Shown: one piece after another, positions 20,147 through 37,781 of the stretch | How the letters are laid out: each line of letters opens with the position of its first letter | How positions within the stretch are numbered: position 1 is the stretch's first letter | Virus record (IMG/VR): IMGVR_UViG_3300038463_000177 | Length of the DNA stretch: 64,000 nucleotides | Reading direction: 5' to 3' (one strand) | Source: a virus | Notes under the pieces: model-generated | Told to the model about the DNA's origin: nothing | The model's database searches: none | Seen by the model: the letters and a program-made list of their open reading frames with translations, nothing else | Made by a program: the position numbers and the translations under genes

Positions 20147-20647
20147 ATGTACCCATTGCTTTGGCTCGATCCAGGCGCGGCCGGCTGCGGTATAGGGGTA
20201 GTCAAATCCCCGAGGTCGACGGCCCGCGAGGGAAAAGATTCTTGGGCACGCATCCCCATCCCTCCCCAGAAAAAATTCCAAAAACCGCCTTACCCGGTAA
20301 CCAGCCACCACCAACCCCATTGCAATAAGCCACGCCTTATGCCATCCAGAACAGCGTCAGGACCCCGCCCATCAGTTAAAACCGGAGTTTCAGCAAAAAT
20401 GACCAACGTTTACGAAGGCACCCCCGACGCCCGCCAGTCCGCCGACGTCGCGCACCCGGTCTCCAGCTTCCGCCCCACATACCGTGCGCTCACGCCCGAC
20501 GAGAAGGCTCTGCACGACGACCTCAAAGCCAAGGCCGTCGAGCTCGAAGCCCTGTTCGCCAAGGTCAAGCCCGGCCGTTACAACGCCCTGGCGGTCACCA
20601 GCCTGGAGCAGGCGATCATGTGGATCGTCAAGGAGCTGACGTCGTGA
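20147..20647 (+). CDS. hypothetical protein (conserved-looking C-terminal 82 aa; N-terminal part doubtful)
   Basis: Perfect TAGGAGG 7 nt before ATG 20147, but the first 84 codons have only ~54% GC3 and are P/K-rich; internal start MTNVYEG at 20399. Confidence 0.5.
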   Translation: MYPLLWLDPGAAGCGIGVVKSPRSTAREGKDSWARIPIPPQKKFQKPPYPVTSHHQPHCNKPRLMPSRTASGPRPSVKTGVSAKMTNVYEGTPDARQSADVAHPVSSFRPTYRALTPDEKALHDDLKAKAVELEALFAKVKPGRYNALAVTSLEQAIMWIVKELTS

Positions 20648-22072: not shown

Positions 22073-22435
22073 ATGACCCCCGACGCCTTCCGGGCCGCCG
22101 CCCAGCGCGTCTACAAGCGCCCCGACTGGAAGACGGCCTTGTCCCGGGATCTCGGCGTCAACGTCTGCACCGTGCACCGCATGCTGCATCGCTCCGAGGT
22201 GTCGGGCCCGTGGGCGATCGCCATCAAGGCCATGCTGGACAAGCGCCAGGCGCAGGACCGGCTGGACCGGGAAGTCAGGAAGCTGATGCCCAAAAAGCCG
22301 AGGAAGCGGTCCCGCAAGGCCATCCAGAAACGGAAGCAGAAGAATGCCGAGCGAGCCGCGAGCATGGTACAACGAGATCGACCCCTATGCGGCGCAGTGG
22401 CTGCGCAACCTGATCCAGAAAAAGCTGATACCTGA
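22073..22435 (+). CDS. HTH protein with Lys/Arg-rich tail
   Basis: LSRDLGVNVCTVHRMLHRSE; 3' end overlaps the methyltransferase start by 92 nt. Confidence 0.6.
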   Translation: MTPDAFRAAAQRVYKRPDWKTALSRDLGVNVCTVHRMLHRSEVSGPWAIAIKAMLDKRQAQDRLDREVRKLMPKKPRKRSRKAIQKRKQKNAERAASMVQRDRPLCGAVAAQPDPEKADT

Positions 22436-23393
22436 TGGAGATGTCGATACCCGGTCGATCGCCGACGTCTGCCCCGCCGATTTGCGCGGCTACACCCAGT
22501 GCCATTTTTTTGCCGGCCTCGGCGGCTGGCCCGCGGCTTTGCGACGCTCAGGCGTTTGGCTGGATCATCGCCCGGTTTGGACGGGCAGCTGTCCTTGCCA
22601 GCCTTTCTCCGTCGCGGGCAAGCAAGGTGGGTTTGCTGACGAGCGGCACCTCTGGCCTTTCTGGCAGTACCTCATCGAGCAGTGCCGCCCTGCAGTCATC
22701 TTTGGAGAGCAGGTTGCGTCCGCTTCTCAATGGCTCCGCCTTGTGCGAGGTGACCTGGAAGCCCTGGAATACGCCGTGGGGTTCATGCCTGTCGAGGCCG
22801 CGAGCGCGGGTGCGTTCCACTTGCGGGACAGGTACTGGTTTGTGGGCCACGATACGCGCGTCGGACGGGGAGAAAGGCGGTCCCAACCAGCAGTTCACGA
22901 GCGGCGAGGGACAGCCGCTGCCGGCGATGGTGGCGCAAGCGCTGTGGCCAACAACAACAACAACAACAACAAGGGACCACAAGGACGGTTCGTATTGCCC
23001 GAACGTGCCGATCAACGGGTTGCTGGGCAGGACGGTCTGGCCGACGCCGCGCGCGCAGAGTGCTTTGAACAGTGGCCCAAGCCGAACAGGTTGCCGGGCG
23101 GATATACAGACGGTAGCGTTATGGAGCACGGCGCGCGCGTCGCCGAACGAGAACCGTACGACGAGAGCGACGCCATCTCAGATGGACGGCAAGCACGGGC
23201 AGTATCTGGCGGTGCAAGCCTCGAATGGGTCCTCGGAGCCGACGGAAAAGCGAGGGTCGTTAAATCCGGAATTCGTCTGCTGGCTCATGGGGTACCCCAG
23301 CGAGTGGCTAAGCTGCGCGCCCTCGGAAATGCCATCGACCTCCGCCCGGCGACCGCGTTCATCCAAGCCGTCCACGAAAGCCTGAGCCAGTGA
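22344..23393 (+). CDS. DNA (cytosine-5) methyltransferase; central target-recognition part appears to be encoded in the +1 frame (see findings)
   Basis: Motif I HFFAGLGGW, IV SCPCQPFSVAGK, VI IFGEQV, VIII HLRDRYWFVG, X LRALGNAI in this frame; WPT..RDHKDG and LNPEFVCWLMGYPSEW motifs lie in frame +1. Confidence 0.8.
   Translation: MPSEPRAWYNEIDPYAAQWLRNLIQKKLIPDGDVDTRSIADVCPADLRGYTQCHFFAGLGGWPAALRRSGVWLDHRPVWTGSCPCQPFSVAGKQGGFADERHLWPFWQYLIEQCRPAVIFGEQVASASQWLRLVRGDLEALEYAVGFMPVEAASAGAFHLRDRYWFVGHDTRVGRGERRSQPAVHERRGTAAAGDGGASAVANNNNNNNKGPQGRFVLPERADQRVAGQDGLADAARAECFEQWPKPNRLPGGYTDGSVMEHGARVAEREPYDESDAISDGRQARAVSGGASLEWVLGADGKARVVKSGIRLLAHGVPQRVAKLRALGNAIDLRPATAFIQAVHESLSQ
22949..22972 (+). 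repeat. (CAA)8 trinucleotide microsatellite inside the methyltransferase gene
   Basis: caacaacaacaacaacaacaacaa read directly; gives Asn7 in the annotated frame and Thr7 in the +1 frame. Confidence 0.95.
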
Positions 23394-23848
23394 CCCGCTT
23401 CAAACTGCTAACCCACATCGAACGCGACATCCGCAACCAGGTCCTGTTCGACTCCTACCGACGACCAACCCGGAGAACCCGACTGATGATACATTTGCGT
23501 GACTACCACCGCGTCTACCTCGCCACCGCCGCTTTTGCCGCTGCGCTGGCCATCTCATGCTACACCGTCGCGCGCGCCGACGAGCTCCCCAAGTGCCCCG
23601 ACCCCGGCGTCAAGTGCAAGATCCTGTACCTCACGGAACAGGAAGAACAGATGCTGATGACCAAGAACGGCATCCTCGACACCGCAGCCCAGGCCCGGGC
23701 GATCGACCTCGGGCAATTCAGCGTCTACCTGAAGACCCGCATTGCCGCGGCGCCGGCGGGCGTTGTTACTCCGGTCCCGCCTTCCCCACCCCCGGTGCCG
23801 GTCACGCAAAATAATTCGCCGGCGCCTGTTGACAATCCCGCCAAGTAG
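23390..23848 (+). CDS. signal-anchored or secreted protein with Pro-rich tail
   Basis: Hydrophobic segment VYLATAAFAAALAISCYTVARA; tail PVPPSPPPVPV; GTG 23390 overlaps MTase stop; alternative ATG 23486 after GGAGAA. Confidence 0.6.
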   Translation: MTRFKLLTHIERDIRNQVLFDSYRRPTRRTRLMIHLRDYHRVYLATAAFAAALAISCYTVARADELPKCPDPGVKCKILYLTEQEEQMLMTKNGILDTAAQARAIDLGQFSVYLKTRIAAAPAGVVTPVPPSPPPVPVTQNNSPAPVDNPAK

Positions 23849-23909
23849 TACAATGTAGTACCCAGTCGATGCATGGAGATAAAAACCGCAGAGAGACGCA
23901 AAAACTACA

Positions 23910-23984
23910 GCAGCGATAGCTCACTGGTAGAGCATCTGAATTGTAATCAGAAGGTCGCGGGTTCGACTCCCGTTTGCAGCACCA
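23910..23984 (+). tRNA. tRNA-Thr: tRNA-Thr (anticodon UGU), CCA encoded
   Basis: Hand-folded cloverleaf: acceptor GCAGCGA/TTGCAGC (one A-A mismatch at 3:70), D arm GCTC-ACTGGTA-GAGC, anticodon arm TCTGA-ATTGTAA-TCAGA, T arm GCGGG-TTCGACT-CCCGT, ACCA end. Confidence 0.8.
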
Positions 23985-24167: not shown

Positions 24168-24692
24168 ATGAAGATCATCGAGGCAATGAAGCGCGTCAAG
24201 GCCAACAAGGAGAAGATTGCCGACCTGCAGAAGCAAATCGGGCAGTTCTGCACCAATTACGACTTTGAGGCGCCGACCTACGGCATGGAGACCCCGAACA
24301 AGATCGCGGAGTGGCTGCAGGGCTGCGACGACATCTCGCGACAGAATGCCAAATTGCTGGTGGCTATCCAGCGCACCAACCTGGTGACGTCGGTGACCAT
24401 CACGCTGGGCGACAACAACATCACCAAGTCGATCGCCGAGTGGATATGGCGCCGGCGCGAGTACGCCGCGCTGGACCTGAAGACGTGGCAGGCGCTGACC
24501 GATCGCGGGTTGAAGGATGGCATGCACACCAATTCCCAAGGCACGCCGACCATGGTCAAGGTCGTCCGCCATTTCGACCCCGTCAAGCGTGACCGCATGA
24601 CGGCGATGTATAAGTCCGAGCCGCACGAGATTGATGCCGCGTTGGAAGTTATTAACGCGGTCACCGACCTGGTCGAGGAAAACGCCCACTAG
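24168..24692 (+). CDS. DIP1984-family (septicolysin-like) protein, function unknown
   Basis: MKIIEAMKRVKANKEKIADLQKQI.., IQRTNLVT, SIAEWIWRRREYAALDLK, EIDAALEVINAVTDL track the DIP1984 family pattern as I remember it. Confidence 0.6.
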   Translation: MKIIEAMKRVKANKEKIADLQKQIGQFCTNYDFEAPTYGMETPNKIAEWLQGCDDISRQNAKLLVAIQRTNLVTSVTITLGDNNITKSIAEWIWRRREYAALDLKTWQALTDRGLKDGMHTNSQGTPTMVKVVRHFDPVKRDRMTAMYKSEPHEIDAALEVINAVTDLVEENAH

Positions 24693-24790: not shown

Positions 24791-25000
24791 ATGCCCAAGC
24801 GCCAACCCAAACGCCGGGAAGTGATGCGGTCCTTCCGGATCCCCATCGCCCTCGACCGCCAGCTGGGCGTCGCCGCCCGCAAGCGGGGCTTCGGCAAGAG
24901 CTTGATGCTTCGGGAGATCGTCACCAGTTGGCTGACTTATGAGCGCGGGCAGCCGCCGCTGACGCAGGCCGAGATCAAGGAGATCGTCGATGGCGAGTGA
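24791..25000 (+). CDS. ribbon-helix-helix (CopG/Arc-like) DNA-binding protein
   Basis: MRSFRIPIALDRQLGVAARKRGFGKSLMLREIV shows a beta-strand then helix-helix pattern. Confidence 0.7.
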   Translation: MPKRQPKRREVMRSFRIPIALDRQLGVAARKRGFGKSLMLREIVTSWLTYERGQPPLTQAEIKEIVDGE

Positions 25001-25304
25001 CCTTGGCATTTGCACGACAACGGACTGGTGGGTCAGCACCAAGAGTCCCTCCAGTATCCTACGGATGTTTCCGGTGCCTTTGGAGGCTGAGGTCAAGATC
25101 CGGGAGTTGGCCGGCATCGACGCCGCCCTGATTGCCGCCGAGCTCGGCATCGCCACCGCCAAAGTAATTCGTTACCAGCGCCAGCTTGGCCTGCGCCCGC
25201 TGGCCGCCAACAGCAAGTGCCATCGTTACCCCGTCAACATGCGCGGGCATAACCGCAAGCGGAAGTCGGGCGTCTGCATATCGAGGATCGAGGGGACACT
25301 GTGA
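24990..25304 (+). CDS. small HTH protein
   Basis: IRELAGIDAALIAAELGIATAKVIRYQRQLG; basic C-terminus. Confidence 0.55.
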   Translation: MASDLGICTTTDWWVSTKSPSSILRMFPVPLEAEVKIRELAGIDAALIAAELGIATAKVIRYQRQLGLRPLAANSKCHRYPVNMRGHNRKRKSGVCISRIEGTL

Positions 25305-26296
25305 AAATAGCTTTGGCGACCACAACCATCCACATCCCGCACGCCCTCAAACTGATGCGGGAGATCGGCCCGGACGTCCGGTTTTTTGTGGCGGTCGATA
25401 AGAAAACGCCGGATGACATTGCGAGCATCGTCGATGCCAATACGAAATTGCTGAGCGAGGTTATCCAAAACGATTGGAAGTGCTCCGAAGCCATCGGCTG
25501 GAACACGCTGGCCCGCCGCAACATCGTCTTCCTGGAAGCTCTCAAATGGGGCGCCGACGTGATCTATAGCTGGGACAACGATAACATCCCGACCAGCCCT
25601 TACCACTTCGCCCCGTTCGACGGCCCGTGGGAATTCAGCGGCATCAAGGTCACCGGCACCGACGGCTGGTTCGACCCGGGCCAGCTCCTGATCCCGCCGA
25701 CCCGTCACCGCGGATTCCCCTATGACAAGCCCGTCAGCAAGACTGCCTATCCCGTCACCGGCGCCAAGGTCGGTGTGGCTGCAGGACTCGTTATTGGTGA
25801 TCCCGACTGCGACGCTGTCACCCGCATGGAGCACCGCCCCGACATCGGTAGCGTTCACATCCTCGGTTCAACCGGCGTTGTTGTCGATCCCCACACCTGG
25901 ACCGTCTTCAATAGCCAGAACACCGCAGTCATCCGGGAACTGATCCCGTCGTGGTTCATGATGCCGGGCGTCGGCCGCCACGACGACATATACGCGTCGC
26001 TTATAGTTCAGCGTGTGGCGCGCGAGCGGGGGTACCATACTCATTTTGGTCCCCCGTTCACCTATCAGCAGCGCAACGAGCACAACCTCGTCACCGACCT
26101 CCGCAAGGAGATCGACGGGATGGAGAACGTGCAGAAGATCGCGCGGGTGCTGGACATGATCGAGCTGGACGGCGAGTCGGTGATCGGCGACACGCAGATC
26201 ATATACGCCACCCTGCACGGCGACAGCCTGATCCCCGACAAGGCGCATGCCGCGGCGCAGACTTGGTTGCTCGATTGCGAGGAGGCGATGAAGTGA
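25301..26296 (+). CDS. RGP/GT75-like glycosyltransferase or nucleotide-sugar mutase
   Basis: SWDNDN, HRGFPY, GLVIGDPDCDAVTR, FNSQNTAVIRELIP, GRHDDIYASLIVQ parallel the plant RGP blocks DDDC, RGYPF, GLWLNIPDYDAPTQ, MNLAFDRELIGP, GRYDDMWAG. Confidence 0.7.
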   Translation: MKIALATTTIHIPHALKLMREIGPDVRFFVAVDKKTPDDIASIVDANTKLLSEVIQNDWKCSEAIGWNTLARRNIVFLEALKWGADVIYSWDNDNIPTSPYHFAPFDGPWEFSGIKVTGTDGWFDPGQLLIPPTRHRGFPYDKPVSKTAYPVTGAKVGVAAGLVIGDPDCDAVTRMEHRPDIGSVHILGSTGVVVDPHTWTVFNSQNTAVIRELIPSWFMMPGVGRHDDIYASLIVQRVARERGYHTHFGPPFTYQQRNEHNLVTDLRKEIDGMENVQKIARVLDMIELDGESVIGDTQIIYATLHGDSLIPDKAHAAAQTWLLDCEEAMK

Positions 26297-27525
26297 AACT
26301 AGCAGTCGGTTTTTCAACCAAGGACCAGGTCGATCTCACCAGGCAGACCTTCGCCCGCCTCAAATTCCCCGCGCACGGCGACCTCTATTGGTGCGACGGC
26401 AGCCGGACCGACGAGGGCCGGGAGTTGCCGGGCCAACTCGGCCATCGCGCCGACCGGGTATTCGGCGGCGCCGACGCCGGCATCGCCTGGAAGCTGTCCT
26501 ACATCCTGAACCATGGACCGCCGCAGCACCCGCCCTACACCCACATCATGCTGCTCGAGAATGACGTCCTCCTGGACGAGGACTGGTACGAGCCGACGAT
26601 CAACCTGTTCAGGGAGGGCCTGCGAGATGGACTCGAAGTCGGGGCGGTCAGCCCGCGGTCTTACGTTGATCGTGTTCTTGTGCAGCGTGATGGCTACGCC
26701 GTTATGCACAATATCGGTGCTGGCGCTGTGGTATTCACGCGACAAGCCGCCCAGATCGTGCTCCGAACTTTCCGGACCCACTGGTGGCCCGACAACGTCA
26801 AGCTATTCGCCCAGCTGGCGGGCATCGATCTTCGCACCTATGCCGCTTTCCGGGGCAATGAGCAGTGGGTCACTACGGATTGGGGGTGGGAAGCCCAGCT
26901 GGCTCGTCACGGACTCGCCTCTCTTGCTCTCACCCCCGCCAAGTGTCAGATGATCGGACAGAACCCGCCGCTGAAAGAGCAGGGACTGGAGCTGACGCAA
27001 GGGCCGGTCGAGGTGCGGCGAGACGAACGGGCGTTCATCCAGTACCGTAACACGTTGGCGTATCTGCGTCGCGGGGACTGGAAATTCGAACTCCCCGGCA
27101 CGTTCGCCCGCGACGGCGCCGCCATGCTTTTCTTTCCTCACCAACTGGGAGCGCTGTATACAAAATGGCAAGGCACTTTGGAATTACAGTGGAGCCAGGG
27201 CTACGGCCCGTTCGCCTACCGCGCTGGTCCGGGCGGCGCGTCTCTTTCTGTGCACATTTCTGGTTCTGCCTCGTTCCAGTGCAGTGGCGGCATCGCCGGC
27301 GCGACGGTGACGATCGAGGACCACCGCTCTGGATTTAGGGCGAGCCCGCACTTGCCTCCCGCCACCGAGGTGATATCCATCGCCGTCCCCGGCGGCCCGA
27401 TCCCGCGGCAGGTGACCATGCAGCTGGCCGAGGGGGCGGTGTTCTACGGGCTGCTGTGCAACGACCCGCAGATGATCGACACCACCTGGAAGTTTGATTG
27501 GTCGCAGTTGCCGGAGGCGAAATGA
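26293..27525 (+). CDS. GT-A fold (GT2-like) glycosyltransferase with unknown beta-rich C-terminal domain
   Basis: GTG 26293 overlaps upstream stop; KLAVGFSTKD, WCDGSRTDEG, IMLLENDVLLDEDW resemble the GT2 N-terminal blocks. Confidence 0.6.
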   Translation: MKLAVGFSTKDQVDLTRQTFARLKFPAHGDLYWCDGSRTDEGRELPGQLGHRADRVFGGADAGIAWKLSYILNHGPPQHPPYTHIMLLENDVLLDEDWYEPTINLFREGLRDGLEVGAVSPRSYVDRVLVQRDGYAVMHNIGAGAVVFTRQAAQIVLRTFRTHWWPDNVKLFAQLAGIDLRTYAAFRGNEQWVTTDWGWEAQLARHGLASLALTPAKCQMIGQNPPLKEQGLELTQGPVEVRRDERAFIQYRNTLAYLRRGDWKFELPGTFARDGAAMLFFPHQLGALYTKWQGTLELQWSQGYGPFAYRAGPGGASLSVHISGSASFQCSGGIAGATVTIEDHRSGFRASPHLPPATEVISIAVPGGPIPRQVTMQLAEGAVFYGLLCNDPQMIDTTWKFDWSQLPEAK

Positions 27526-27992
27526 AAATCTGGTTTGATACTGAGTTCATCGAGGACGGCAAGACGATTGACCTCATCAGCATCGGCATGGTGCGCGAGG
27601 ACGGCGCGGCGCTGTACTTGGAAAATTTGTCTGCCGACCTGAAGCGGGCAAGCCCGTGGGTGTACGCGAACGTCATTTCGAAATTGAACATGCCGGTACA
27701 CGGAGTCGCCCGCGAGGAGATCGGTCCGAAGGTCCTGGCGTTCGCCGGCGAAAAGCCAGAGTTCTGGGCGTACTATGCCGATTACGACTGGGTCGTGCTG
27801 TGCCAGCTGTTCGGGACGATGATGGACCTGCCGAAGGGCTGGCCGATGTGTTGTCGGGATGTCAAGCAGCTATGCGACAGCGTCGGCAACCCGAAGCTCG
27901 TCCAGCAGGATGAAGGCAGTGAGCACAACGCCCTCGCCGATGCGATCTGGACCAAGAAAGCGTGGGAATTTTTGATGGAGCAGATCGGGTGA
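27522..27992 (+). CDS. DEDDh 3'-5' exonuclease (Rv2179c/DnaQ-like)
   Basis: IWFDTEFIEDG, YYADYDWVVL, EHNALADA give the DEDDh motifs. Confidence 0.8.
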   Translation: MKIWFDTEFIEDGKTIDLISIGMVREDGAALYLENLSADLKRASPWVYANVISKLNMPVHGVAREEIGPKVLAFAGEKPEFWAYYADYDWVVLCQLFGTMMDLPKGWPMCCRDVKQLCDSVGNPKLVQQDEGSEHNALADAIWTKKAWEFLMEQIG

Positions 27993-28984
27993 AGAAAGTT
28001 CTGGTTCTAGGCGCCGCCGGCTTCATCGGCAGCCACCTCGCCCGCCGCCTCAAGGCCGAAGGCAATTACGTCGTTGCAGTCGCCCGCGGTTTTCCGAAAT
28101 ACTGCAAGACGCCGGAGATCGCCAATGAGTGGAACATCCTGGATCTTACCAACCCTGTCGATTTTCACGCTCACTGGTGGCGTCATGATTTTGACGAATG
28201 CTACCAGCTATCTTCCGAGAGCGGCGGACTGGGCTTTATCGGTACTGGCGATCATGATGTCGATATCCTGACCAACTCGGTCAAGATCAACCTGAACACC
28301 CTAGACGCCATGCGCAAGTCCAACTCGCACGCCCGCATCCTGTTTGCCTCCTCGCAGTGCGTCTACCCCGACATTGGCATCGACCCATTCGCCCAGGAGC
28401 GCATCGCCGAGGTGCATCCGTTCCGCGAGTCGGAGGCTTCCTTCAACACCTTCCCGTTCGCCCAGGAGAAGCTGTTCAGCGAGCAGCTGTACGCCGCCTA
28501 CGCGCGCAATCTCGACTTTGACGTCCGGATCGCCCGGCTCGGCAATACCTACGGCCCCGGCTGCATCTGGGATGGCCCGCGCGCCAAGGCGCCGGCGGCC
28601 ATTTGCCGGAAGGTGGCGCAGGGCGCTCCGGCCGGCATTGTCGAACTCTGGGGCGACGGGTGGTCGGTGCGGAACTATACCTACATCGACGACGCCGTCG
28701 AGGGACTGATTCGGTTGATGGCGTCCAGCTACAACAAGCCGGTCAACATTTCCTCGCCGGAAGAAACCTCGGTGGCCGAGTTGTTTGCCGCGGTGTGCAA
28801 GGCGGCGGGCAAGGACATGCTGTGGCGGCAGGCGGCCGGGCCGACGGGGGTTTCCTACCGGAGCAGTGACAACTCCATCAGTCGGCACGTCCTGAATTGG
28901 GAGCCGCCGACGTCGCTCTGGAACGGCCTGCGGGAGACCTATCCGTGGGTCGAGCAGCAGGTGTTGACAAGGACAAAAGCCTGA
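27989..28984 (+). CDS. NAD-dependent sugar epimerase, GDP-mannose 3,5-epimerase-like SDR
   Basis: VLGAAGFIGSHL, FASSQCVYP, RAKAPAAICRK, LWGDGWSVRNYTYIDDAVEG, KPVNISS track GME blocks; YxxxK reads FAQEK. Confidence 0.82.
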   Translation: MKKVLVLGAAGFIGSHLARRLKAEGNYVVAVARGFPKYCKTPEIANEWNILDLTNPVDFHAHWWRHDFDECYQLSSESGGLGFIGTGDHDVDILTNSVKINLNTLDAMRKSNSHARILFASSQCVYPDIGIDPFAQERIAEVHPFRESEASFNTFPFAQEKLFSEQLYAAYARNLDFDVRIARLGNTYGPGCIWDGPRAKAPAAICRKVAQGAPAGIVELWGDGWSVRNYTYIDDAVEGLIRLMASSYNKPVNISSPEETSVAELFAAVCKAAGKDMLWRQAAGPTGVSYRSSDNSISRHVLNWEPPTSLWNGLRETYPWVEQQVLTRTKA

Positions 28985-29003
28985 TGTACTAATTTGTAGT
29001 ACA
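28985..29003. promoter_or_regulatory. 7-bp inverted repeat directly after the epimerase stop
   Basis: TGTACTA-atttg-TAGTACA; shares GTAGTACAA with 23845 and 48454. Confidence 0.45.
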
Positions 29004-29022
29004 AACAAGGGAGGCCCTGTTT

Positions 29023-29223
29023 ATGGCCATGATTGAGTTTTACATTGGACACGAGGCGCCTTGTATTTCGGTCGTAGTTGACTCTGCCGTCCCCCGTGCC
29101 GGGGAGTTTGTCAACATTCGGAAAGTGACTTACTTGATAAAGCGTGTCACGTGGGCAGTAGACTGGCCGGATTCGATGGGCGCCAAACTTCGTGCAACCG
29201 TCGAGATGGAAATAGCGCCATGA
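29023..29223 (+). CDS. hypothetical small protein
   Basis: 66 aa after GGGAGG; ATGA overlap with recombinase start. Confidence 0.5.
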   Translation: MAMIEFYIGHEAPCISVVVDSAVPRAGEFVNIRKVTYLIKRVTWAVDWPDSMGAKLRATVEMEIAP

Positions 29224-29912
29224 TTCTTGGGTACATTCGCTGCTCCACTGCTGACCAGGCCAACGAGAACCGCTCGTCTTTGCAGGTCCAGACTGACATC
29301 ATCGAGGGCTTCGCCCGCACCCGCGGCATCGACAAGTACGGGGTGCAGATTTTCACGGATGCCGGTGTATCCGGCGCGGTCAAGCTGGCCTTCCGCCCGG
29401 CCGGCGCCGAACTCCTTGCCGCCATGGCCCCGGGCGACACGGTGATCGCGTCCAAGCTTGACCGCATGTTTCGCTCGGCCGGCGACGCCATCGCCATGTT
29501 CGAGGTGTTCAAGGAGAAGGGCGTCAACCTCGTGCTGTTCGACATCAGCCACGAGCCGGTGTCCTCGGGGGTCGGCAAGCTGATCATGACCATCCTGGCG
29601 GCGGTCGCCGACATGGAGCGCATACGGATCAAGGAGCGCACCGCCGAGGGCCGCAAGGCCAAGAAGGCCAAGGGCGGCCCGGTCGGCAAGGTCCCCTTCG
29701 GGTACCGGAAGGTCGGTGTCGGGCACGACTCGACGCTCGAGGTTGACGAGCGGGAGATGGAGGCGCTGGCGTTGATGCGGGAGGCGTATCAGGCCGGTGT
29801 TGGCGTCAGCGCCATCCCGGCGGCGCTGGCTGCGCGAGGGTACCTGTCGCGGGCCGGCAAGCCGTTCGACCGGAGCTCGGTACGCAACGCGGTCAAGGAG
29901 GCGAGGCAGTGA
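29220..29912 (+). CDS. serine recombinase (resolvase/invertase catalytic domain plus partial recombinase domain)
   Basis: MILGYIRCSTADQ catalytic Ser motif, ASKLDRMFRS, then GKVPFGYRK..LEVDEREMEAL as in large serine recombinases, but only 230 aa. Confidence 0.88.
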   Translation: MILGYIRCSTADQANENRSSLQVQTDIIEGFARTRGIDKYGVQIFTDAGVSGAVKLAFRPAGAELLAAMAPGDTVIASKLDRMFRSAGDAIAMFEVFKEKGVNLVLFDISHEPVSSGVGKLIMTILAAVADMERIRIKERTAEGRKAKKAKGGPVGKVPFGYRKVGVGHDSTLEVDEREMEALALMREAYQAGVGVSAIPAALAARGYLSRAGKPFDRSSVRNAVKEARQ

Positions 29913-30124
29913 CGCTACTGGAATTCGAGACCAAGTGCCGAGACCTGTGCCCGCACTGCGCCGCCGGCGAGCATGTCCGCCAGCGCACCGACACTTCCGA
30001 ATGGGTTCACGATTGGTCCTTCGGCGGCATGGACCCCAAGATCGGCAGGCGCACCGGCATCGGGCACGGCATCTGTCTGGCGCATGATTTGAGGCTGAAG
30101 CAGAAGGATCTGGTGGATGGGTGA
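29909..30124 (+). CDS. small Cys/His-rich protein
   Basis: CRDLCPHCAAGEH..HGICLAH; 71 aa, coupled on both sides. Confidence 0.5.
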   Translation: MTLLEFETKCRDLCPHCAAGEHVRQRTDTSEWVHDWSFGGMDPKIGRRTGIGHGICLAHDLRLKQKDLVDG

Positions 30125-31508
30125 CCGCGAGGGCGCGATGCGACTCCTGATCAAAGGCCAGGAGACGGCGCACGACAAGTCGACCAGCAACGACCACGCT
30201 TACCAGCTCATGGCATCCGCCTGTTTCGCCGACCCCACCTATGGCGCGGCCTTTTACGCCAACGGCGGAGCGGCCGGTGACCTGCTTCGCCCGCACGCTT
30301 CCGTCGCGCTGTACCGCCGCGCGCTTGAATGCGAGCTCGACGATGACGGCAAAGTGCGCGCGCTGACCAACCTGGCGTGGGAGCTGATGCAGATCGGCGG
30401 GCACAAGGAAGCCGTCGTTCACCTGCACGAGGCTTTGCGCATCGACCCCAAGCGCCCGCTTCCTTACATGCATCTGTCGCTTTGCCACCAGGTCTGGGGC
30501 GAGACCAGCATCGCCGTCGGCTACTCCAGGAAGTGCCTCGACCTGACCGACCCCAACGATGGCGTCGGCTACCCGACCGCCGAGTTCGCCTACGCCTTCG
30601 CATTGCTGTTCGACCGCCAGTACGCCGCGGGCCTGAAGCACTTCGAGTCGCGCTTTCCCGCGCGCCTGCCGCAATTCCTGTTGTATCCGTATTCCAAGTG
30701 GAGGGGTGAAAGTGGCAAGACGCTGTTCCTGGTGGCCGATCAAGGTCTCGGTGACACGCTTTCATACGCTCGATTTGTCGAAGCCGCGTCCAAGCGGTGT
30801 CGATATATCCATATGTGCGTGCAGGCGGAGCTTCGACGTGTGTTTGAACACGCGTTTCGCCACCTGGACAATATCAATTTCATACCCTCGCCGTCGAGTT
30901 TCCCCGGCGACGCTGATGTGTGGAGCACCTTCGTTAGTCTGCCCTACGCTCTTGGTCTATCAGATGCGGAAATTATCGGAGCTCCAAACATCGACATGCC
31001 CCGCCCGCCGATGTCGACCGCGTGGAAGGTGCCCGACCGCAAGTTCCACATCGGCATCGCTTGGGCCGGTAGCCCGCTGAACGACATCGACAAGCATCGC
31101 AACATCCCGATCCATCACTTTATGGAGTTGTATCGTGTTCCCGGGGTTCAACTATATGCTTTGCAGTGCGATCAACGAAAAGATCAGCTTAATTTATGGG
31201 GATTTGCGCCTCTCATCAGGGACTTGTCCGGATATATACGCGATGTTGCCGATACCGTTTCGATCCTCTCTGGCTTGGATCTTGTGGTGTCATGCGAATC
31301 CGCGCTCGGTCATATATGCTCTATGTCCGGACATGAATGCTGGATTCCTTACAGTTGGTTGGGGCGAGATTATCGAGCGGGAGTATCTGGCAACGCGAAA
31401 TTGTGGACGCCAAAAACTACTTTCTTCCAGCAGTCCGACGACATGCGCTGGGAGCCCGTGTTCGAGCGGATCGTTGAAGCCTTGAAGGAGAAGGTACATG
31501 GCGGTTGA
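30117..31508 (+). CDS. TPR-repeat protein fused to a GT-B (GT9/GT41-like) glycosyltransferase
   Basis: N-terminal TPR-like helices (ALYRRALECE.., HLHEALRIDP..); KTLFLVADQGLGDTLSYARFV resembles the GT9 signature; the C-terminal half has lower GC. Confidence 0.65.
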   Translation: MGDREGAMRLLIKGQETAHDKSTSNDHAYQLMASACFADPTYGAAFYANGGAAGDLLRPHASVALYRRALECELDDDGKVRALTNLAWELMQIGGHKEAVVHLHEALRIDPKRPLPYMHLSLCHQVWGETSIAVGYSRKCLDLTDPNDGVGYPTAEFAYAFALLFDRQYAAGLKHFESRFPARLPQFLLYPYSKWRGESGKTLFLVADQGLGDTLSYARFVEAASKRCRYIHMCVQAELRRVFEHAFRHLDNINFIPSPSSFPGDADVWSTFVSLPYALGLSDAEIIGAPNIDMPRPPMSTAWKVPDRKFHIGIAWAGSPLNDIDKHRNIPIHHFMELYRVPGVQLYALQCDQRKDQLNLWGFAPLIRDLSGYIRDVADTVSILSGLDLVVSCESALGHICSMSGHECWIPYSWLGRDYRAGVSGNAKLWTPKTTFFQQSDDMRWEPVFERIVEALKEKVHGG

Positions 31509-31698
31509 TTCAGTTGTCGAAGCGGTGCGCGCTGATCTCCTGCGCCGTTCCCAGTTCGGCATTGCCAAGTATGGCGTGACGCTCGATCGCACGGATCTTA
31601 ATTTGCGCGATTGGCTTCAGCATGCCTACGAGGAATGCCTGGATCAGGCCAACTATCTGAAGCGCAGCATCATGGAGATCGACAGTGGAACGAGTTGA
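31498..31698 (+). CDS. small all-alpha protein, possibly MazG-like NTP pyrophosphohydrolase
   Basis: RRSQFGIAKYG..WLQHAYEECLDQANYL resembles the MazG-type EExxD helix pair; weak. Confidence 0.4.
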   Translation: MAVDSVVEAVRADLLRRSQFGIAKYGVTLDRTDLNLRDWLQHAYEECLDQANYLKRSIMEIDSGTS

Positions 31699-32350
31699 CG
31701 TTCTTGATCACGGTTTTGTTCGCTTGGTCGATAGCATGGGATCGGATTTGTCAGTCGTTCGTGCCGCGCGCGTATCTTACGACGCTGCGTGGCGCGCAGG
31801 GGAAGATCAGGGATCGGATGCGAAGCTGCTTCGATATTTGTGGAAGAATCATCACACGACGCCATTCGAGGCAGTGGCGTTCACGTTCGAGATAAAGGCG
31901 CCGATATTCGTGTTCCGGCAGTGGCACCGGCATCGAACTTGGTCCTACAACGAACTCAGCGCTCGTTACCGCGAGCTTCCGGAAGAGTTCTACGTGCCGC
32001 GTCCGGAGGATATCGGGGCGCAGAGCGCAAGCAGTAAACAGGCGCGGGTTTGGACCGGCGCTACTGACGAAGTGTCGTCGGGGCTAATCCGAAAGTCGTG
32101 CGAGGACGCTTTTGAGATATATCGTGGATTGCTGGAGCGAGGCGTGCCACGCGAACTAGCGCGTTCGGTGCTGCCAGTGGCGGCTTACAGCCACATGTTC
32201 GCGACGGTCGATCTTTTGAATTTGCTCAAGTTCCTGACGCTTCGATGCGACGGGCACGCGCAATACGAGATTCGTGTTTACGCCGATGCAATGCGCGAAT
32301 TGATCCGCCCGATCGTACCGGTTTGCGTTGCTGCGTGGGAGAATCGGTGA
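31685..32350 (+). CDS. thyX: FAD-dependent thymidylate synthase ThyX
   Basis: ThyX signature FRQWHRHRTWSYNELSARY (RHRxxS), HTTPFE, LRCDGHAQYEIR. Confidence 0.9.
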   Translation: MERVDVLDHGFVRLVDSMGSDLSVVRAARVSYDAAWRAGEDQGSDAKLLRYLWKNHHTTPFEAVAFTFEIKAPIFVFRQWHRHRTWSYNELSARYRELPEEFYVPRPEDIGAQSASSKQARVWTGATDEVSSGLIRKSCEDAFEIYRGLLERGVPRELARSVLPVAAYSHMFATVDLLNLLKFLTLRCDGHAQYEIRVYADAMRELIRPIVPVCVAAWENR

Positions 32351-32568
32351 TGTCCTGGTCCAAACCAGTTTTCTCCTCCCTGCTGTCCGAAGTAGGCTGG
32401 GACGAAGACAATCAGGAACTGGTTGTCACGTTCGCCAAAAACGGCAAAACGGCGGCCTACAAGGGGTTCGACGAGGGCAAGGCGGTGCAGCTGTCCAATG
32501 CGGCGTCGGCCGGGTCGATGTTCCTCGGGGAGATTAAGCCGTTTGCATCGGCGTGGAGGTACGTGTGA
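32350..32568 (+). CDS. KTSC-domain protein
   Basis: SLLSEVGWDEDNQELVVTFAKNGKTAAYKGFDEGKAVQLSNAASAGSMF fits the KTSC pattern. Confidence 0.6.
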   Translation: MSWSKPVFSSLLSEVGWDEDNQELVVTFAKNGKTAAYKGFDEGKAVQLSNAASAGSMFLGEIKPFASAWRYV

Positions 32569-33032: not shown

Positions 33033-33605
33033 TTGGTCTATTCCGCCTATGGTCTCCGGGAACCCGGAGACCAGCCAGTGCTGCTAGGCGACCAGCTTGA
33101 CGCTCAGGGCGTCTTCACCGCCGTCTGTTATGACAAGGACGGCAACGCCAAGTGGGAGGACACGTTCGACAACGTGGTCACCACCCCCGGCAAGAACCTC
33201 GCCTTCAACACCTTCCTGAATGGCTCGGCCTACACCGTCACCGGTCCCTATATGGGCCTGATTTCAAATACTTCCTTCACCGCCGTCTCCGCCGCCGACA
33301 CCATGACCAGTCACGCCGGCTGGCTCGAGGCGGGCAACGCCAACGCCCCGACCTATTCCGGCACCCGGAACACCTGCGCATGGGCCGCGGCGTCCGGCGG
33401 AGCGATCGCTTTGTCAGCCTCCCTGACCTTTACCTTCACAGGTGCCGGCACCGTCACCGGTGCCTTCATCGTCTACGGATCCGGAGCGCTGAACACCATC
33501 GACAATACCGGCGGCACGCTCTGGTCGGCCGGTCAGTTCACCGGGGGCAACAAGACGGTAGCGTCCACCGACCAGGTGGTGGTGTCGTACACCGTGAGCA
33601 TGTAG
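33033..33605 (+). CDS. beta-rich virion-associated protein (fibre cluster 1)
   Basis: S/T/G/A-rich beta-type sequence; TTG 33033, or GTG 33078 after GGAGA. Confidence 0.55.
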   Translation: MVYSAYGLREPGDQPVLLGDQLDAQGVFTAVCYDKDGNAKWEDTFDNVVTTPGKNLAFNTFLNGSAYTVTGPYMGLISNTSFTAVSAADTMTSHAGWLEAGNANAPTYSGTRNTCAWAAASGGAIALSASLTFTFTGAGTVTGAFIVYGSGALNTIDNTGGTLWSAGQFTGGNKTVASTDQVVVSYTVSM

Positions 33606-34301
33606 GTGCTGATTCTCAGCAGCACCTCGGCGCTGATCTCGGTCACCACCGGGTCGGCCGGGGCGGTTTCGGTCCATGCTTCCTACCTCGACAACAACGC
33701 CGGCACCATTACCCCGACCGGGCTGAATACGGCGTCGATCACGGGCGCCACCACGACCACCGTGGTGGGCTCGCCCGGCGCCTCGGTGCAGCGCAACATA
33801 AACACACTGATCATCCTGAACACCTCGGCCTCTGTCACCAACCTGATCACCGTCAACCTGAACGATGGCACCAACACCAACAAAATATACAGCTCGACAT
33901 TGCAGCCCGGCGAGATGTGCGAGTTCGTGTACGGGCAGGGTTGGCGCACGTTCGATGCCAGCGGCGAGCTCAAGGTCACCGCCGCCAATCCGGTGTCGGC
34001 GTATCCGCAGGTTCGGATTGTCTCTACCGGCACGACCGACGCCGGGCCAGCCTCGATGTCGTCCGGGAGTTGCTTGATCCTGTGGAACAGTGCTACGGCG
34101 GGCGCCAAGACATCGACGATTCCGACGGCGGCGGGGTCGAACAACAAGGTGACGATCGTCGATTACGCGCAGACAGCACAGACGAACGCGATCACGGCGT
34201 CGCCGGCGACCGGCAGCATCACGGGGAATAACGAGGTCTACACCAAGGGGGGAGCGCAGACCTGGGTTGATACGAGTTTAGGATGGGTGGCGGAAGTATG
34301 A
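33606..34301 (+). CDS. fibre-like structural protein
   Basis: 231 aa, S/T/N/G-rich, GTG immediately after upstream stop. Confidence 0.6.
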   Translation: MLILSSTSALISVTTGSAGAVSVHASYLDNNAGTITPTGLNTASITGATTTTVVGSPGASVQRNINTLIILNTSASVTNLITVNLNDGTNTNKIYSSTLQPGEMCEFVYGQGWRTFDASGELKVTAANPVSAYPQVRIVSTGTTDAGPASMSSGSCLILWNSATAGAKTSTIPTAAGSNNKVTIVDYAQTAQTNAITASPATGSITGNNEVYTKGGAQTWVDTSLGWVAEV

Positions 34302-36862
34302 AAAAGGTTCTCGTATTATTGCTTTGCTTGTTGGGCACCCCGGCGCTGGCGCAGAACACCCCGCCTGGCAGTTCAGAGGGCCTGATCGAAAACAACGGAG
34401 GATCGCCGGCGCGGTTCGGGATAGTGACGATCGCCTCGGGCTGCACGCTATCGAGCGGCACGCTGAATTGCCCCGGAACCGGCATCAGCTCCTATCCCGC
34501 CTCAGGCATCCCGCAATCGACGGGGTCGGCGTGGGGCACGAGCATTACTCCGGGTACGGGCGTGGCTACTGCCCTCGCGCTTGCTGTCAATGCATCCGGC
34601 GGATTTCTGACTTACGGCGGCATTCCCTACGCCGCATTGCCTGCCCTCAGTGCAAATCAATGGCTGGGCGCACTGACGGGCACTACGCCGAGTGGCCAGA
34701 GCTGGCCCTCGTGTTCGGCCACTGGTAACTGGCTTCAATATACGTCAGGAACCGGCGTCGGTTGCATCACCACGGGATATCCTGCTGGTAGTTTGTCTGG
34801 CTCGTCTCTGCCAGCAGGCATCACTGGGTCGTCCCTGACTTCATTGGGGACGATAGCTACCGGCGTCTGGAACGGCACCGCAATAGGCGCACAATGGGGC
34901 GGCACCGGCCAAAACACGTCCGCGAGCACGGGCATCCCGTCGATATCGAGCGGAACGTGGTCGGTCACCACTACCCCGTCGTTCACGGGCACCAACATCA
35001 GCGGGACCGCCGCGAGCCTGACCGCCGGAATCGCGAATGCGGTCGCCAGCGCCACGACCACGGTCAACGTGTCGAGCGCGACCGCACCGACCCTCGGACA
35101 GAACCTCACGGCAACCAGCAGCACCACTGCGACATGGCAGACCCCGCTTAACACCGTTGGCCCATCTCTGGCCTCGCTCTATCGCGTGTGGAATGCAATC
35201 GGCTCTGGAATAGTGCGGATCGAAAACCTTGGCGATTCGATCATCACCTGTAATCAGCAGGCTCCTTGCACGTTCGGTCCGATCCGGCTCGGTAGCACGT
35301 TCGCCTTGCAGTTGATCAACGAACTTTCTCAGCGTTACCCGCAATACTCGACTGGCGCTCGGCCAATCGTTCGGCTGTCGAACGCAACCACGACGGTTTC
35401 GGCTGGCGATGGCTACACGCTAACGTCGGGCACTATCACGAACTCGACATTACTGGGGCCGCAGGAAAGCGGGGTCTCGCTCAACGGCGGCTCACTGATG
35501 ACGCTTTCGAGTGGCGGCGTCATCACGATCAACGTCGGTCAACCCTATTCGAGCGTGAACATCTATTGCGTGCCGGGCGCGAGCATCAACGGTTACACGG
35601 TGACGATCAACGGATCGTCCGTCGGCAGTGCATGCAACGCCAACAGCGGTACGGCCGCTGTCGCGATCCAGAACTTTGCGAACCCGGTAGCCTTCGCCAG
35701 CCAGCCGGCTACGGGATCGACGCTGACGCTGACGGCGCTTGGCGCGACGAACTATCTTTATGCCTATGAGGGCGTGCTGTTTTGCACTGCATCTAACACC
35801 GCCTGCACCACGGGCTTTGCTGTCGATAACATGGGCGTCGGCGGCGCATCGTCACCATGGTTCGCATCTGGCACCAAGACTGGCGTCACTGATGGCGGGA
35901 TGGCTTGGGTAAAGATTCTACCCGGCAAGATCGCCCTTGGCACGCTGGAAAACGGCGAGAACGATGCCAACGCCAGCTCTGCCATCACCTCGACGCAGCA
36001 GAACGCACAGAATCAGATCGTCGCTACCGATCTGATCAACCTCGGCGCGAGCGTGATGTTTTGGGTGCCACCACCCTACAATTCGGGTGGTGCCCCTGCG
36101 ACGTATGCCGCGCTTCAGCAAGGTTCGCTGACGTATTGCCAAGCACAAGGCTGGGCCTGCCTGAATATGGCGGACATCTTCATGGGCAGTATCAGCGGCA
36201 CCACGTCGAGCGCCTTTCCATTCACGGCGCAGAACACCGGAATGGGGCTGACCCCACCATGGGGAGTGGCGCAAGGACTCGTGAACAGCAGCGACGCGCA
36301 GCATCTAAACGACTGCGGCGAATTGCTGGCGACGCAACAATTTCTCGCAACCGTGTTCCCACATATCATCTTTAACTACACGACTACAGGTGCATGCTCC
36401 CAGAACCCACAGGGATCAGGCATCGCGTCGGCGTACACGAATGCCACGACAGGCTTTACCATTGTCGCTGGCGCGACATCCAACACCGGGCAGTTGGAGT
36501 TTGTCGCGCCGATCGGTCAGACGTTCCACGCGGTTTGCAGCGGCTATATGCAGGTCGGAACCACGGGCATCGTATCTTTTGAAGTGGTGGGATCAGCGGC
36601 GATCAGCAGTGTCGTCAGCGTTCTGACTTATCAAACGGCGTCGGCCAGCGCCTATTCAAACACGGCAGCAGCTACGGCTCTATCATCAGCCATGGCTACG
36701 GCAAGTATCACGGCAGCCAGCAATTTGCAGTGGTCGCTGGACATTCACGGCGTCAACAGCACCAGCTCCAATTCATTCGCGGTTGAAGCCCATGAGGCTT
36801 CCGGCACGTTGACGATACCGGCTGGGGCTACGTGCCTTAACCAGATGAACGGGCCGCAGTAG
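34298..36862 (+). CDS. tail fibre/spike protein with SGNH (GDSL) esterase-like domain and signal-peptide-like N-terminus
   Basis: MKKVLVLLLCLLGTPALAQ; fibre repeats LTSLGTIATGVWNGTAIGAQWGGTG; IENLGDSII (block I) and SSDAQHLNDCG (DxxH block V). Confidence 0.72.
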   Translation: MKKVLVLLLCLLGTPALAQNTPPGSSEGLIENNGGSPARFGIVTIASGCTLSSGTLNCPGTGISSYPASGIPQSTGSAWGTSITPGTGVATALALAVNASGGFLTYGGIPYAALPALSANQWLGALTGTTPSGQSWPSCSATGNWLQYTSGTGVGCITTGYPAGSLSGSSLPAGITGSSLTSLGTIATGVWNGTAIGAQWGGTGQNTSASTGIPSISSGTWSVTTTPSFTGTNISGTAASLTAGIANAVASATTTVNVSSATAPTLGQNLTATSSTTATWQTPLNTVGPSLASLYRVWNAIGSGIVRIENLGDSIITCNQQAPCTFGPIRLGSTFALQLINELSQRYPQYSTGARPIVRLSNATTTVSAGDGYTLTSGTITNSTLLGPQESGVSLNGGSLMTLSSGGVITINVGQPYSSVNIYCVPGASINGYTVTINGSSVGSACNANSGTAAVAIQNFANPVAFASQPATGSTLTLTALGATNYLYAYEGVLFCTASNTACTTGFAVDNMGVGGASSPWFASGTKTGVTDGGMAWVKILPGKIALGTLENGENDANASSAITSTQQNAQNQIVATDLINLGASVMFWVPPPYNSGGAPATYAALQQGSLTYCQAQGWACLNMADIFMGSISGTTSSAFPFTAQNTGMGLTPPWGVAQGLVNSSDAQHLNDCGELLATQQFLATVFPHIIFNYTTTGACSQNPQGSGIASAYTNATTGFTIVAGATSNTGQLEFVAPIGQTFHAVCSGYMQVGTTGIVSFEVVGSAAISSVVSVLTYQTASASAYSNTAAATALSSAMATASITAASNLQWSLDIHGVNSTSSNSFAVEAHEASGTLTIPAGATCLNQMNGPQ

Positions 36863-36863
36863 C

Positions 36864-37781
36864 GTGGCCCTCAATTCGGTCTACGAGCCGCCGCTCAATG
36901 CCAAGAAGTGGTTCGACCCGCAGATCACGGTGCAGGGCTGGTTCGACGCGCAGTTGCTTGCTCAAAGCGGCAACATTTACAACGTCTCGATTTCGGAAGC
37001 GGCGACTGCGGTTGACACGGTAGCCGCCAAAGCGATTTTCAAGCCGGCGATCAGTGAGGCTGCAAGCGCCGTCGACACTGTCTCGACCCGCGCCATTTTC
37101 AGGCCCGCCATTAGCGAAGTCGCCAACGCGGTCGACACGCCCAGCACCCGCGCCATTTTCCGCCCGGCGGTTTCCGAAGCCGCCAACGCGGTCGACACGC
37201 CCTCGACCCGCGCCATTTTCCGCCCCGCCATCAGCGAGGCCGCCAGCGCCGCTGACAACGTCACGTCCAGCGGCAAGTTCAGGCTGGCGCTGATTGAGGC
37301 CGCCGCGGCGGCCGATAGCGTCACGGGCATAAAACGGTTCGTCGTCTCGACGATCGACGTCATGGCCGCGCTCGACGCCCTTGGCGTCAGTGAGTACGCG
37401 ACGTGGGAGCGGTCGCAATTCATTGCCTTGCAGACCGACTACGGCTCCTCGGCGGTCGGCCGCTTCCTCCAGATCGCCTTGCCCCCTGCGGTCGACCATA
37501 CCCAGGCTATTTCTTTTTTCATCTCCGTAGGGTACCAGATAGTTCCCGGCCAGGTGTTCACGGCGACCCTGACCCGCCCCGATGGGACCAGCATCAGTGT
37601 CAACTCGCTCCGCGTCCAGCCTCAATTCACCGACGTCTACACCGCGCTCGGGCGCTTCCACGGCGGCACCTATGTTTTCTGTTTCCTCAATGCGGGCGTA
37701 CTCAACCAGATCGGCCAGTGGTCGATCAACGTCGTCACCGGCACCAGCGTGTCGGCGCCGGCCTATTTCACGGTGACCTGA
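36864..37781 (+). CDS. structural protein with six 20-aa tandem repeats and a beta-rich C-terminal domain
   Basis: GTG start; repeats ISEAA(S/N)AVDT(V/P)STRAIFRPA. Confidence 0.65.
   Translation: MALNSVYEPPLNAKKWFDPQITVQGWFDAQLLAQSGNIYNVSISEAATAVDTVAAKAIFKPAISEAASAVDTVSTRAIFRPAISEVANAVDTPSTRAIFRPAVSEAANAVDTPSTRAIFRPAISEAASAADNVTSSGKFRLALIEAAAAADSVTGIKRFVVSTIDVMAALDALGVSEYATWERSQFIALQTDYGSSAVGRFLQIALPPAVDHTQAISFFISVGYQIVPGQVFTATLTRPDGTSISVNSLRVQPQFTDVYTALGRFHGGTYVFCFLNAGVLNQIGQWSINVVTGTSVSAPAYFTVT
36990..37349 (+). repeat. six tandem 60-bp coding repeats (last two degenerate)
   Basis: Read directly; unit boundaries at 36990, 37050, 37110, 37170, 37230 and 37290. Confidence 0.85.

Follow-up and report, generated by a model that had tools for sequence, protein, structure and literature searches.

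Which sugar would a phage activate with enzymes of its own, and on what acceptor would that sugar be placed? This question is raised by a cassette of glycosylation genes at positions 25301-31508 of the IMG/VR virus record IMGVR_UViG_3300038463_000177. The window, that is, the whole stretch of 64,000 nucleotides that was analysed, makes up nearly all of a 64.8-kb metagenomic contig. Its genes for a family-A DNA polymerase, an SNF2-related helicase, a primase-helicase, a terminase-like protein, a major head protein and an SU10-type adaptor identify it as phage DNA. The cassette is a real operon whose enzyme families had been correctly guessed in a preliminary description of this DNA, its donor pathway is now clearer than in that description, and it represents phage-encoded glycosylation with unusual enzymology. 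The interpretation that we favor, tentatively and with somewhat more doubt than belief, is that this core operon makes its own activated furanose sugar, which is transferred in the cytoplasm, preferably to a conserved phage protein. The four sugar enzymes of the cassette are the following.

25301-26296, plus strand: gene 1, GT75 family, probable nucleoside diphosphate (NDP)-pyranose/furanose mutase resembling MtdL, 331 amino acids (aa), assigned by homology
26293-27525, plus strand: gene 2, GT2-like GT-A transferase with a C-terminal CBM-like beta-sandwich, 410 aa (GTG start at 26293)
27989-28984, plus strand: gene 4, extended short-chain dehydrogenase/reductase (SDR) nearest to GDP-mannose 3,5-epimerase (GME), 331 aa, from matches in PDB
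30117-31508, plus strand: gene 8, TPR region (about residues 1-185) followed by a GT9-like GT-B domain (about 190-463), 463 aa, from an AlphaFold2 (AF2) model

A core operon in a clade of soil phages

The map of open reading frames (ORFs) and the letters at the gene junctions bear out the gene coordinates and the overlapping stop and start codons that were first described. Genes 1 and 2 overlap in GTGA (26293-26296), gene 2 overlaps gene 3 in ATGA (27522-27525), and gene 3 overlaps gene 4 in GTGA (27989-27992). A GAGG/GGAGG-like Shine-Dalgarno sequence lies upstream of every chained start. The chain extends upstream of gene 1, whose start is overlapped by the terminal GTGA of a 104-aa ORF at 24990-25304. 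The four-gene chain thus stood as far as its overlaps are concerned, but its third member encodes an exonuclease (PF16473, phrog_2259) and no sugar enzyme. No transmembrane segment was predicted in any cassette protein, and no genuine multi-transmembrane gene was found across the window, in which the ORFs with at least three hydrophobic segments are antisense shadows within larger genes. The earlier statement that the cassette has no membrane component held, as neither a GtrA/flippase nor another multi-transmembrane partner was found in the window. Promoter and terminator scans stayed at background level.

Close homologues number in the hundreds for gene 2 and likewise for gene 8, on contigs that reach 63-65 kb, and the clade to which these contigs belong is one of uncultured podovirus-like soil phages of roughly 63-65 kb. 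We compared two sets of loci. The first consists of 26 IMG/VR loci found via gene 2. Their gene order is GT75, gene 2, SDR, a serine recombinase, in most loci a 71-aa ORF, the TPR glycosyltransferase (GT) and a KTSC-domain gene, which is always downstream of the TPR-GT; this order holds down to 38% identity in gene 2. Conservation among the 26 loci does not extend to the exonuclease, ThyX or a Dcm-like methyltransferase. The second set was anchored on TerL as an independent marker, and loci reaching far enough upstream were counted. The whole block was present in 14 of these 14 loci, down to 55% TerL identity. It points the same way as TerL and usually immediately precedes it, with the KTSC gene about 1 kb upstream of TerL in most loci; in the window, a tail-fibre block sits between the two. 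Because the block turned up in all related phage contigs that allowed this neighbourhood to be examined, a check proposed in the preliminary description, we regard it as core and not accessory. No recognisable integrase was found in the phage group.

Cultured phages offer little for comparison. By tblastn, gene 2 had no match among them and gene 8 matched distant cyanophage TPR proteins only, and the exonuclease was the sole match of the cassette DNA. Compared by DNA polymerase, the closest cultured phages share about 30% identity. A scan of a genome collection for gene 2 gave one 1.5-kb cassette fragment in a Terracidiphilus metagenome-assembled genome (MAG), with no useful cellular context. 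The exonuclease gene is 75% identical in nucleotides to that of the Tunturiibacter phages Tunturi_1/2. Because these phages are otherwise unrelated, the shared exonuclease points to gene exchange in an Acidobacteriota phage pool and provides a host clue. Together with the Terracidiphilus MAG fragment it hints at Acidobacteriota as hosts. Tunturi_1 had been considered as a cassette-less relative; it was rejected, as its genome organisation is unrelated and the exonuclease alone is shared.

Probable enzymes for donor synthesis and transfer

Gene 1 matches MtdL in PDB (7xpr/7yua; entries labelled 'Transglycosylse') with a phmmer E value of 1e-29. A profile of 15 clade members gives 5e-38 over the full length (residues 4-321 against 9-337 of MtdL), and the Pfam RGP model scores gene 1 at 21.4 bits, under its cutoff of 23.8. 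MtdL is the GT75 GDP-L-galactose/GDP-L-fucose pyranose-furanose mutase of the A201A pathway, in which Arg159 is the nucleophile that becomes autoglycosylated, Asp260 the general base and His287 a Mn ligand (PMC9937993). We mapped the residues shown to be important in that study onto 26 phage homologues of gene 1. R137, D169 and D229, which correspond to R159, D195 and D260 of MtdL, are invariant in 26/26 relatives. Gene 1 also keeps Q206 (Q229), R226 (R257), R258 (R289) and the outer aspartates of the DxD motif, D92 and D94 (D109 and D111); the middle position, D110, is N93 in the window. S205 (Ser228) and H261 (His292) are kept in most of the 26 homologues. The residues on the guanine side resemble those of the GDP type, with T8 at the position of T13 and T69 at that of S86, where UDP-type enzymes have Pro and Asp. 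Judged by its sequence, gene 1 is a full-length MtdL homologue and probably an NDP-pyranose/furanose mutase. Among cultured phages, the cyanophage S-T4 has a GT75 homologue of 33% identity within a sugar cluster. That homologue (L036 7001-7909, MH412654.1) is annotated as 'putative membrane protein', and its island holds an epimerase, heptose-pathway genes, a methyltransferase and two fucosyltransferases.

Gene 4 matches plant GME in PDB (2c5a, 8sg0) with E values of about 1e-56 to 8e-56, and the next-best SDR family, UDP-xylose synthase, reaches about 1e-24 to 4e-24. Its residues S122, C124, K161, N186, K200, R228 and R291 correspond to S143, C145, K178, N203, K217, R243 and R306 of GME. The Cys145/Lys217 acid-base pair and Arg306 mark GME, whereas GMER has His and Lys instead (PMC8787198); gene 4 carries the GME-specific set (C124, K200, R291) and not the His/Lys set. 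In distant clade members the GME-like gene is swapped for an SDR whose best structural relatives are 4-epimerases. Known pyranose mutases use the galacto configuration, which a 4-epimerase-like SDR would deliver. Such a swap, also giving a galacto-configured sugar, fits ring contraction by GT75 as the constant element of the pathway.

The pair formed by genes 1 and 4 has a precedent in actinomycetes. MtdM and MtdL (and Hyg20), of the A201A and hygromycin A clusters, are the same enzyme-family pair in one operon, and they convert GDP-mannose to GDP-L-galactose and then to GDP-L-galactofuranose (PMC9937993). This match strengthens the earlier proposal of an unusual L-sugar or furanose donor. The two systems differ in context: the genes described here belong to a phage and not to an antibiotic cluster, and the acceptor is a nucleoside antibiotic in the one and presumably a macromolecule in the other. 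They also differ at residues of both phage enzymes, which are considered below.

Gene 2 gave no sequence match in Pfam, PHROG, NCBIfam or PDB, and a sequence profile of its N-domain (about 230 aa) gave none in PDB. Aligned by hhalign with GT2 domains, the N-domain profile reached a probability of 92.9% (E 3.7e-7, 108 columns), pairing WxDGS with the GT2 DxGS motif and ENDV with DxD. In the distant gene-2 family W33, D35, E89 and N90 are invariant and S37 and D91 nearly so; in the phage clade D35, S37, E89 and D91 are invariant. In the AF2 model, the C-terminal 140 aa or so have a predicted local distance difference test (pLDDT) value above 90 and form a beta-sandwich matching CBM6/29/35; the whole model weakly matches the GT-A enzymes LH3 and chondroitin synthase. 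From these profile and motif matches, the N-domain appears to be an unannotated GT-A family that has no Pfam model. The family is narrow, with 221 representative clusters among 1.84 billion proteins, and could be defined from these data. In the cellular proteins P0346, P0364 and P0387 (1,461-2,881 aa) the gene-2 N-domain comes first and is followed by GT9, TPR, several GT2, GT4 and methyltransferase domains. Its fusion there to GT9, TPR and GT2 domains suggests a functional link between gene 2 and gene 8.

Gene 8 is modelled well (pLDDT 91.3, pTM 0.87), with about five TPRs followed by a two-Rossmann GT-B domain. Its best Foldseek matches in PDB are SPY, XcOGT and OGT (E 5e-11 to 1e-7, with TM-scores of only 0.27-0.38). 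Gene 8 shares an N-terminal TPR superhelix and a C-terminal GT-B domain with SPY, which uses GDP-fucose, with OGT/XcOGT of family GT41 and with Caulobacter FlmG; compared with SPY and OGT, however, its catalytic domain is short (about 270 aa) and GT9-like, and no sequence match extends beyond the TPRs. Membership in GT41 was rejected on these grounds and on the low TM-scores. In BFVD, the protein is matched over its full length by a TPR protein of the cyanophage S-SRM01 (TM-scores 0.69/0.71), and its GT domain by phage proteins annotated as 'glycosyl transferase family 9' or RfaF (TMt 0.70-0.72). The S-SRM01 gene adjoins a tail-fibre gene, in a cluster with a sulfotransferase, a GT and an epimerase. 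Neither S-SRM01 nor S-T4 has the gene-2 family or the same enzyme combination; the two are large myoviruses, and the genes look accessory there. Gene 8 is the most conserved cassette protein, with 70-80% identity where gene 2 has 60-65%.

Each assignment of the preliminary description (GT75/RGP-like, GT-A, GME-like, TPR-GT-B) is thus backed by profile or structure evidence. What it overlooked were the core status of the block throughout the clade, the exonuclease, and the residue losses in both donor enzymes.

The proposed pathway and its acceptor

According to the interpretation that we favor, the GME-like SDR would act on an NDP-hexose of the host, GDP-D-mannose being the most plausible, and yield an epimer of galacto configuration and GDP-L-galactose type, as its homology suggests. 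Using its conserved Arg/Asp machinery as MtdL does, the GT75 enzyme would contract the ring to give the furanose, a step proposed from homology and the conserved catalytic residues. The donor would then be used by two soluble transferases predicted from their folds, the GT2-like GT-A enzyme with its CBM-like sandwich and the TPR-GT9-like enzyme, whose TPR arm may pick the protein partner. The acceptor may be a conserved phage protein, so that the product would be a glycosylated virion; this is a guess from enzyme architecture and gene position. We favor a virion protein because the block is core, co-oriented with and adjoining packaging and structural genes, because the TPR-GT is its most conserved protein, and because the S-SRM01 twin of this protein lies beside a tail-fibre gene. 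The Ser/Thr richness of structural proteins was also considered as a clue to the substrate and discarded as uninformative, such composition being ordinary for fibres.

Virion glycosylation by soluble phage GTs acting on structural proteins is known from mycobacteriophages of the Che8/Corndog/Myrna type, which use common host-made donors and simple GT-A or GT-B enzymes. The likeness to the cassette lies in the phage-encoded soluble GTs, which here, too, would modify structural proteins. To our knowledge, no sugar-nucleotide pathway, GT75 enzyme or TPR arm has been described in those phages. If the target of the cassette is the virion, virion glycosylation would be extended to Gram-negative-type soil phages and to a rare class of sugar.

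Several observations weigh against this interpretation. In gene 4, the position of Tyr174, the catalytic residue of the Yx3K motif, is taken by Phe (F157), and so it is in the 15 relatives of the same type, which come from independent metagenomes; the Tyr is retained in the GME-like protein of L017 and in the alternative SDR type. The catalytic Tyr of GME is required for the initial C4 oxidation. In the Phe-type proteins the NAD-selecting Asp at the end of beta2 is also gone (A32 in gene 4) and an invariant Arg, R33, is adjacent, a pattern usual for NADP(H); the glycine motif of gene 4, GAAGFIG, is intact. Because the Phe is shared by 15 relatives and is coupled with the loss of the Asp and the gain of the Arg, we regard it as a trait of the lineage and not as damage. 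Going by these residues, gene 4 may not perform the GME reaction. In gene 1, L70 stands at the position of D87 (Leu or Ile in most of the clade, Ser in two loci) and Q256 at that of the Mn ligand H287 (Gln in most of the clade); Asp87 and His287 are both retained in 3 distant loci only. MtdL activity is abolished by D87N and by D87S (PMC9937993). With the Tyr loss and the changed cofactor site in the SDR, and with His287Gln and Asp87Leu in the GT75 enzyme, the textbook reactions may not apply, and for this reason we class neither gene 4 as a GME nor gene 1 as a proven mutase.

On the side of the transferases, the N-domain of gene 2 is modelled poorly (pLDDT 30-75). The Pfam GT9 model matches 8/27 gene-8 homologues weakly, with a best E value of 0.0044 that is below the cutoff, and hhalign gives gene 8 against GT9 a probability of only 31%, over an ESAxxHI motif. 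A profile of the gene-8 C-domain had no match in PDB, and its hmmsearch against the GT9-containing giant proteins was not significant. TPR domains, moreover, occur in polysaccharide-building enzymes too.

A fuller version of the reading, that a clade probably infecting Acidobacteriota makes a rare furanose, of the L-galactofuranose type or related to it, by means of a Tyr-less SDR and a GT75 enzyme with an altered metal and sugar site, and puts it on its virions or on some other essential target, is doubtful. If true, it would add new enzymology to both enzyme families and a type of glycoconjugate new for phages. The replacement of Tyr by Phe in the GME-like enzymes throughout the clade, and those of His by Gln and Asp by Leu in GT75, are natural experiments on the mechanisms proposed for both families, and the variant SDR and GT75 enzymes could give new biocatalysts for NDP-furanoses.

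Enzymes of the GT2 and GT9 types normally work on the inner side of the membrane, where their acceptors are linked to lipids and are then exported by host machinery. The earlier argument, that the acceptor is cytoplasmic since there is no flippase, is therefore weak, as host systems usually export such products. This leads to an alternative that we consider unlikely, in which the cassette remodels a glycan of the host envelope (lipopolysaccharide (LPS) core, O-antigen, capsule or exopolysaccharide): its soluble GTs would work on lipid-linked acceptors, and their product, exported by flippases or ABC transporters of the host, might block superinfection or keep progeny from sticking to debris. 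The lack of a phage flippase is compatible with this, as is the CBM-like domain of gene 2. GT9 is the family of LPS heptosyltransferases, and it is phage GT9/RfaF proteins that the GT domain of gene 8 matches. The GT2, GT9, GT4 and methyltransferase modules to which the gene-2 N-domain is fused in the cellular giants are typical of polysaccharide assembly lines, and the S-T4 GT75 homologue sits with heptose-pathway genes and fucosyltransferases in an island that is LPS-like. Modules for envelope conversion, however, are usually accessory genes of temperate phages, whereas this block belongs strictly to the core, directly precedes TerL and occurs in a group of phages without a recognisable integrase, and the TPR arm suggests a protein partner.

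The departures in the donor enzymes bring in another alternative, which we hold to be quite unlikely. The donor pathway would then be of another kind than assigned: the GT75 protein might serve mainly as an arginine glycosyltransferase or self-glycosylating primer and not as a mutase, and the Tyr-less SDR as a redox-independent 4-keto-sugar epimerase or a mere sugar-nucleotide-binding subunit; another glycoconjugate would result, with the GT75 protein itself or a host protein as its possible base. The conserved changes at D87 and H287 and the correlated changes in the SDR (Y174F, loss of the Asp with Arg33) are in keeping with such a role. On the other hand, Gln can act as a Mn ligand, every residue specific to epimerisation is kept in the SDR, and the swap of SDR type in distant relatives suits the substrate logic of a mutase. 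GT75 is one of three known types of arginine glycosyltransferase, modifying its own Arg, but plant GT75 mutases with Ser at position 87 are active (PMC9937993).

There remains the phage DNA, which might be glycosylated with a furanose like the arabinofuranosyl or proposed galactofuranosyl 5-hydroxycytosine of RB69, DLP3 and RL38J1. A core role against restriction would account for the strict conservation of the block, and nucleotide-metabolism passengers (the exonuclease, ThyX and the Dcm-like methyltransferase) lie nearby; most cassette-bearing relatives, however, are without ThyX and the Dcm-like gene, and we know of no DNA glycosyltransferase with a TPR arm. Furanosyl DNA hypermodification exists, and its phages resemble ours in having a phage-made furanose donor, for which RL38J1 encodes its own NDP-sugar pyranose mutase, and soluble GTs, but they use an FAD-type UGM or an arabinose pathway where the cassette uses GT75, and they require a 5hodCMP synthase homologous to ThyA, together with a dCTPase and kinases (PMC13326640). 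DNA as the acceptor is improbable because no modified-pyrimidine synthase is present: among the checked called genes of the 64.8-kb contig no ThyA-type 5hodCMP/hydroxymethyl-pyrimidine synthase, dCTPase, dNMP kinase or TET/JBP was recognisable, in agreement with the earlier report of no hydroxymethylase.

Phage glycosylation is known from DNA, from O-antigen conversion and from a few actinophage virions. In the literature on GT75, MtdL, galactofuranose or virion glycosylation in phages we found no description of the cassette, and the view that no phage system with this enzyme combination has been described still stands. What appears to be new is a putative self-contained furanose-donor pathway, GT75 with a GME-like enzyme, that is core to a large clade of uncultured soil phages.

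Passenger genes and neighbours

The other features in and around the cassette are as follows.

24791-25304, plus strand: two small ORFs of 69 and 104 aa, chained by stop/start overlaps to the start of the cassette
27522-27992, plus strand: gene 3, Rv2179c-like 3'-5' exonuclease, 156 aa (PF16473, phrog_2259)
28986-29002, no strand: palindrome GTACTAATTTGTAGTAC, intergenic, directly upstream of the recombinase operon
29023-29223, plus strand: 66-aa ORF without a family match
29220-29912, plus strand: small serine recombinase of the resolvase/invertase type (PF00239, E 9e-31)
29909-30124, plus strand: 71-aa Cys/His-rich ORF without a family match, overlapping the start of the TPR-GT gene
31498-32350, plus strand: 66-aa ORF (phrog_11184) and ThyX, variable and outside the core block
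32350-32568, plus strand: KTSC-domain protein, 72 aa (PF13619, precomputed annotation)

Gene 3 is identified as an exonuclease by PF16473 (E 7e-13) and phrog_2259 (E 2e-50). It is missing from this position in nearly all relatives, and L010 and L032 have it at another place. As a variable passenger in the operon, it falls outside the glycosylation function. ThyX is absent from the related loci searched. Upstream of gene 1, the 69-aa ORF is kept in many relatives, and its homologue in L001 has a faint RHH_1 match.

Positions 28985-30116 had been taken for a short insert between gene 4 and the TPR-GT gene. They hold the 66-aa ORF, the serine recombinase and the 71-aa ORF, and we dropped the reading as an insert because nearly all related loci have the recombinase at the same place, and most have the 71-aa ORF there too. 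No convincing invertible segment under the control of the recombinase was found, inverted repeats being at chance level. The 8-mer TGTAGTAC occurs twice in the 64 kb, both times between genes: at 23854-23861 and within the palindrome at 28986-29002. The first occurrence belongs to a tandem GTAGTAC-AAT-GTAGTAC at 23845-23861, which precedes a tRNA gene. The two sites flank a 5.1-kb stretch that carries genes 1-4, and may serve a recombinase or regulation. No copy of the motif turned up in relatives that are about 60% identical.

The tRNA gene, a single tRNA-Thr (TGT) at 23910-23984 (plus strand), lies just upstream of the cassette region. It is followed by a gene for a 174-aa protein at 24168-24692 (plus strand), which has a weak match to the DIP1984 family (NF038048, 32 bits, under the cutoff) and a 69%-identical copy upstream of the cassette in L019. 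The C5-cytosine methyltransferase-like gene at 22344-23393 (plus strand) is divergent, reaching only 32 bits with TIGR00675, and seven Asn codons follow one another in it. At this place the public annotation calls an overlapping frame of 316 aa; the conserved frame is that of 349 aa (47% identity in L018, 61% in L020). A Dam-type (PF05869) methyltransferase gene is found at 14596-15099 (minus strand), so that the phage has at least two DNA methyltransferase-like genes.

The tail-fibre block between the KTSC gene and TerL, at 33033-37781, consists of Ser/Thr-rich fibre-like genes (190, 231, 859 and 305 aa), where most relatives have about 1 kb. L045 and L047 share parts of it at 81-97% identity, and it looks like a swapped or inserted receptor-binding module. 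Farther upstream, an 82-aa gene at 20399-20647 (plus strand) is assigned by precomputed annotation to the Acb2_Tad1_hairpin family, a family of anti-CBASS/Thoeris nucleotide sponges.

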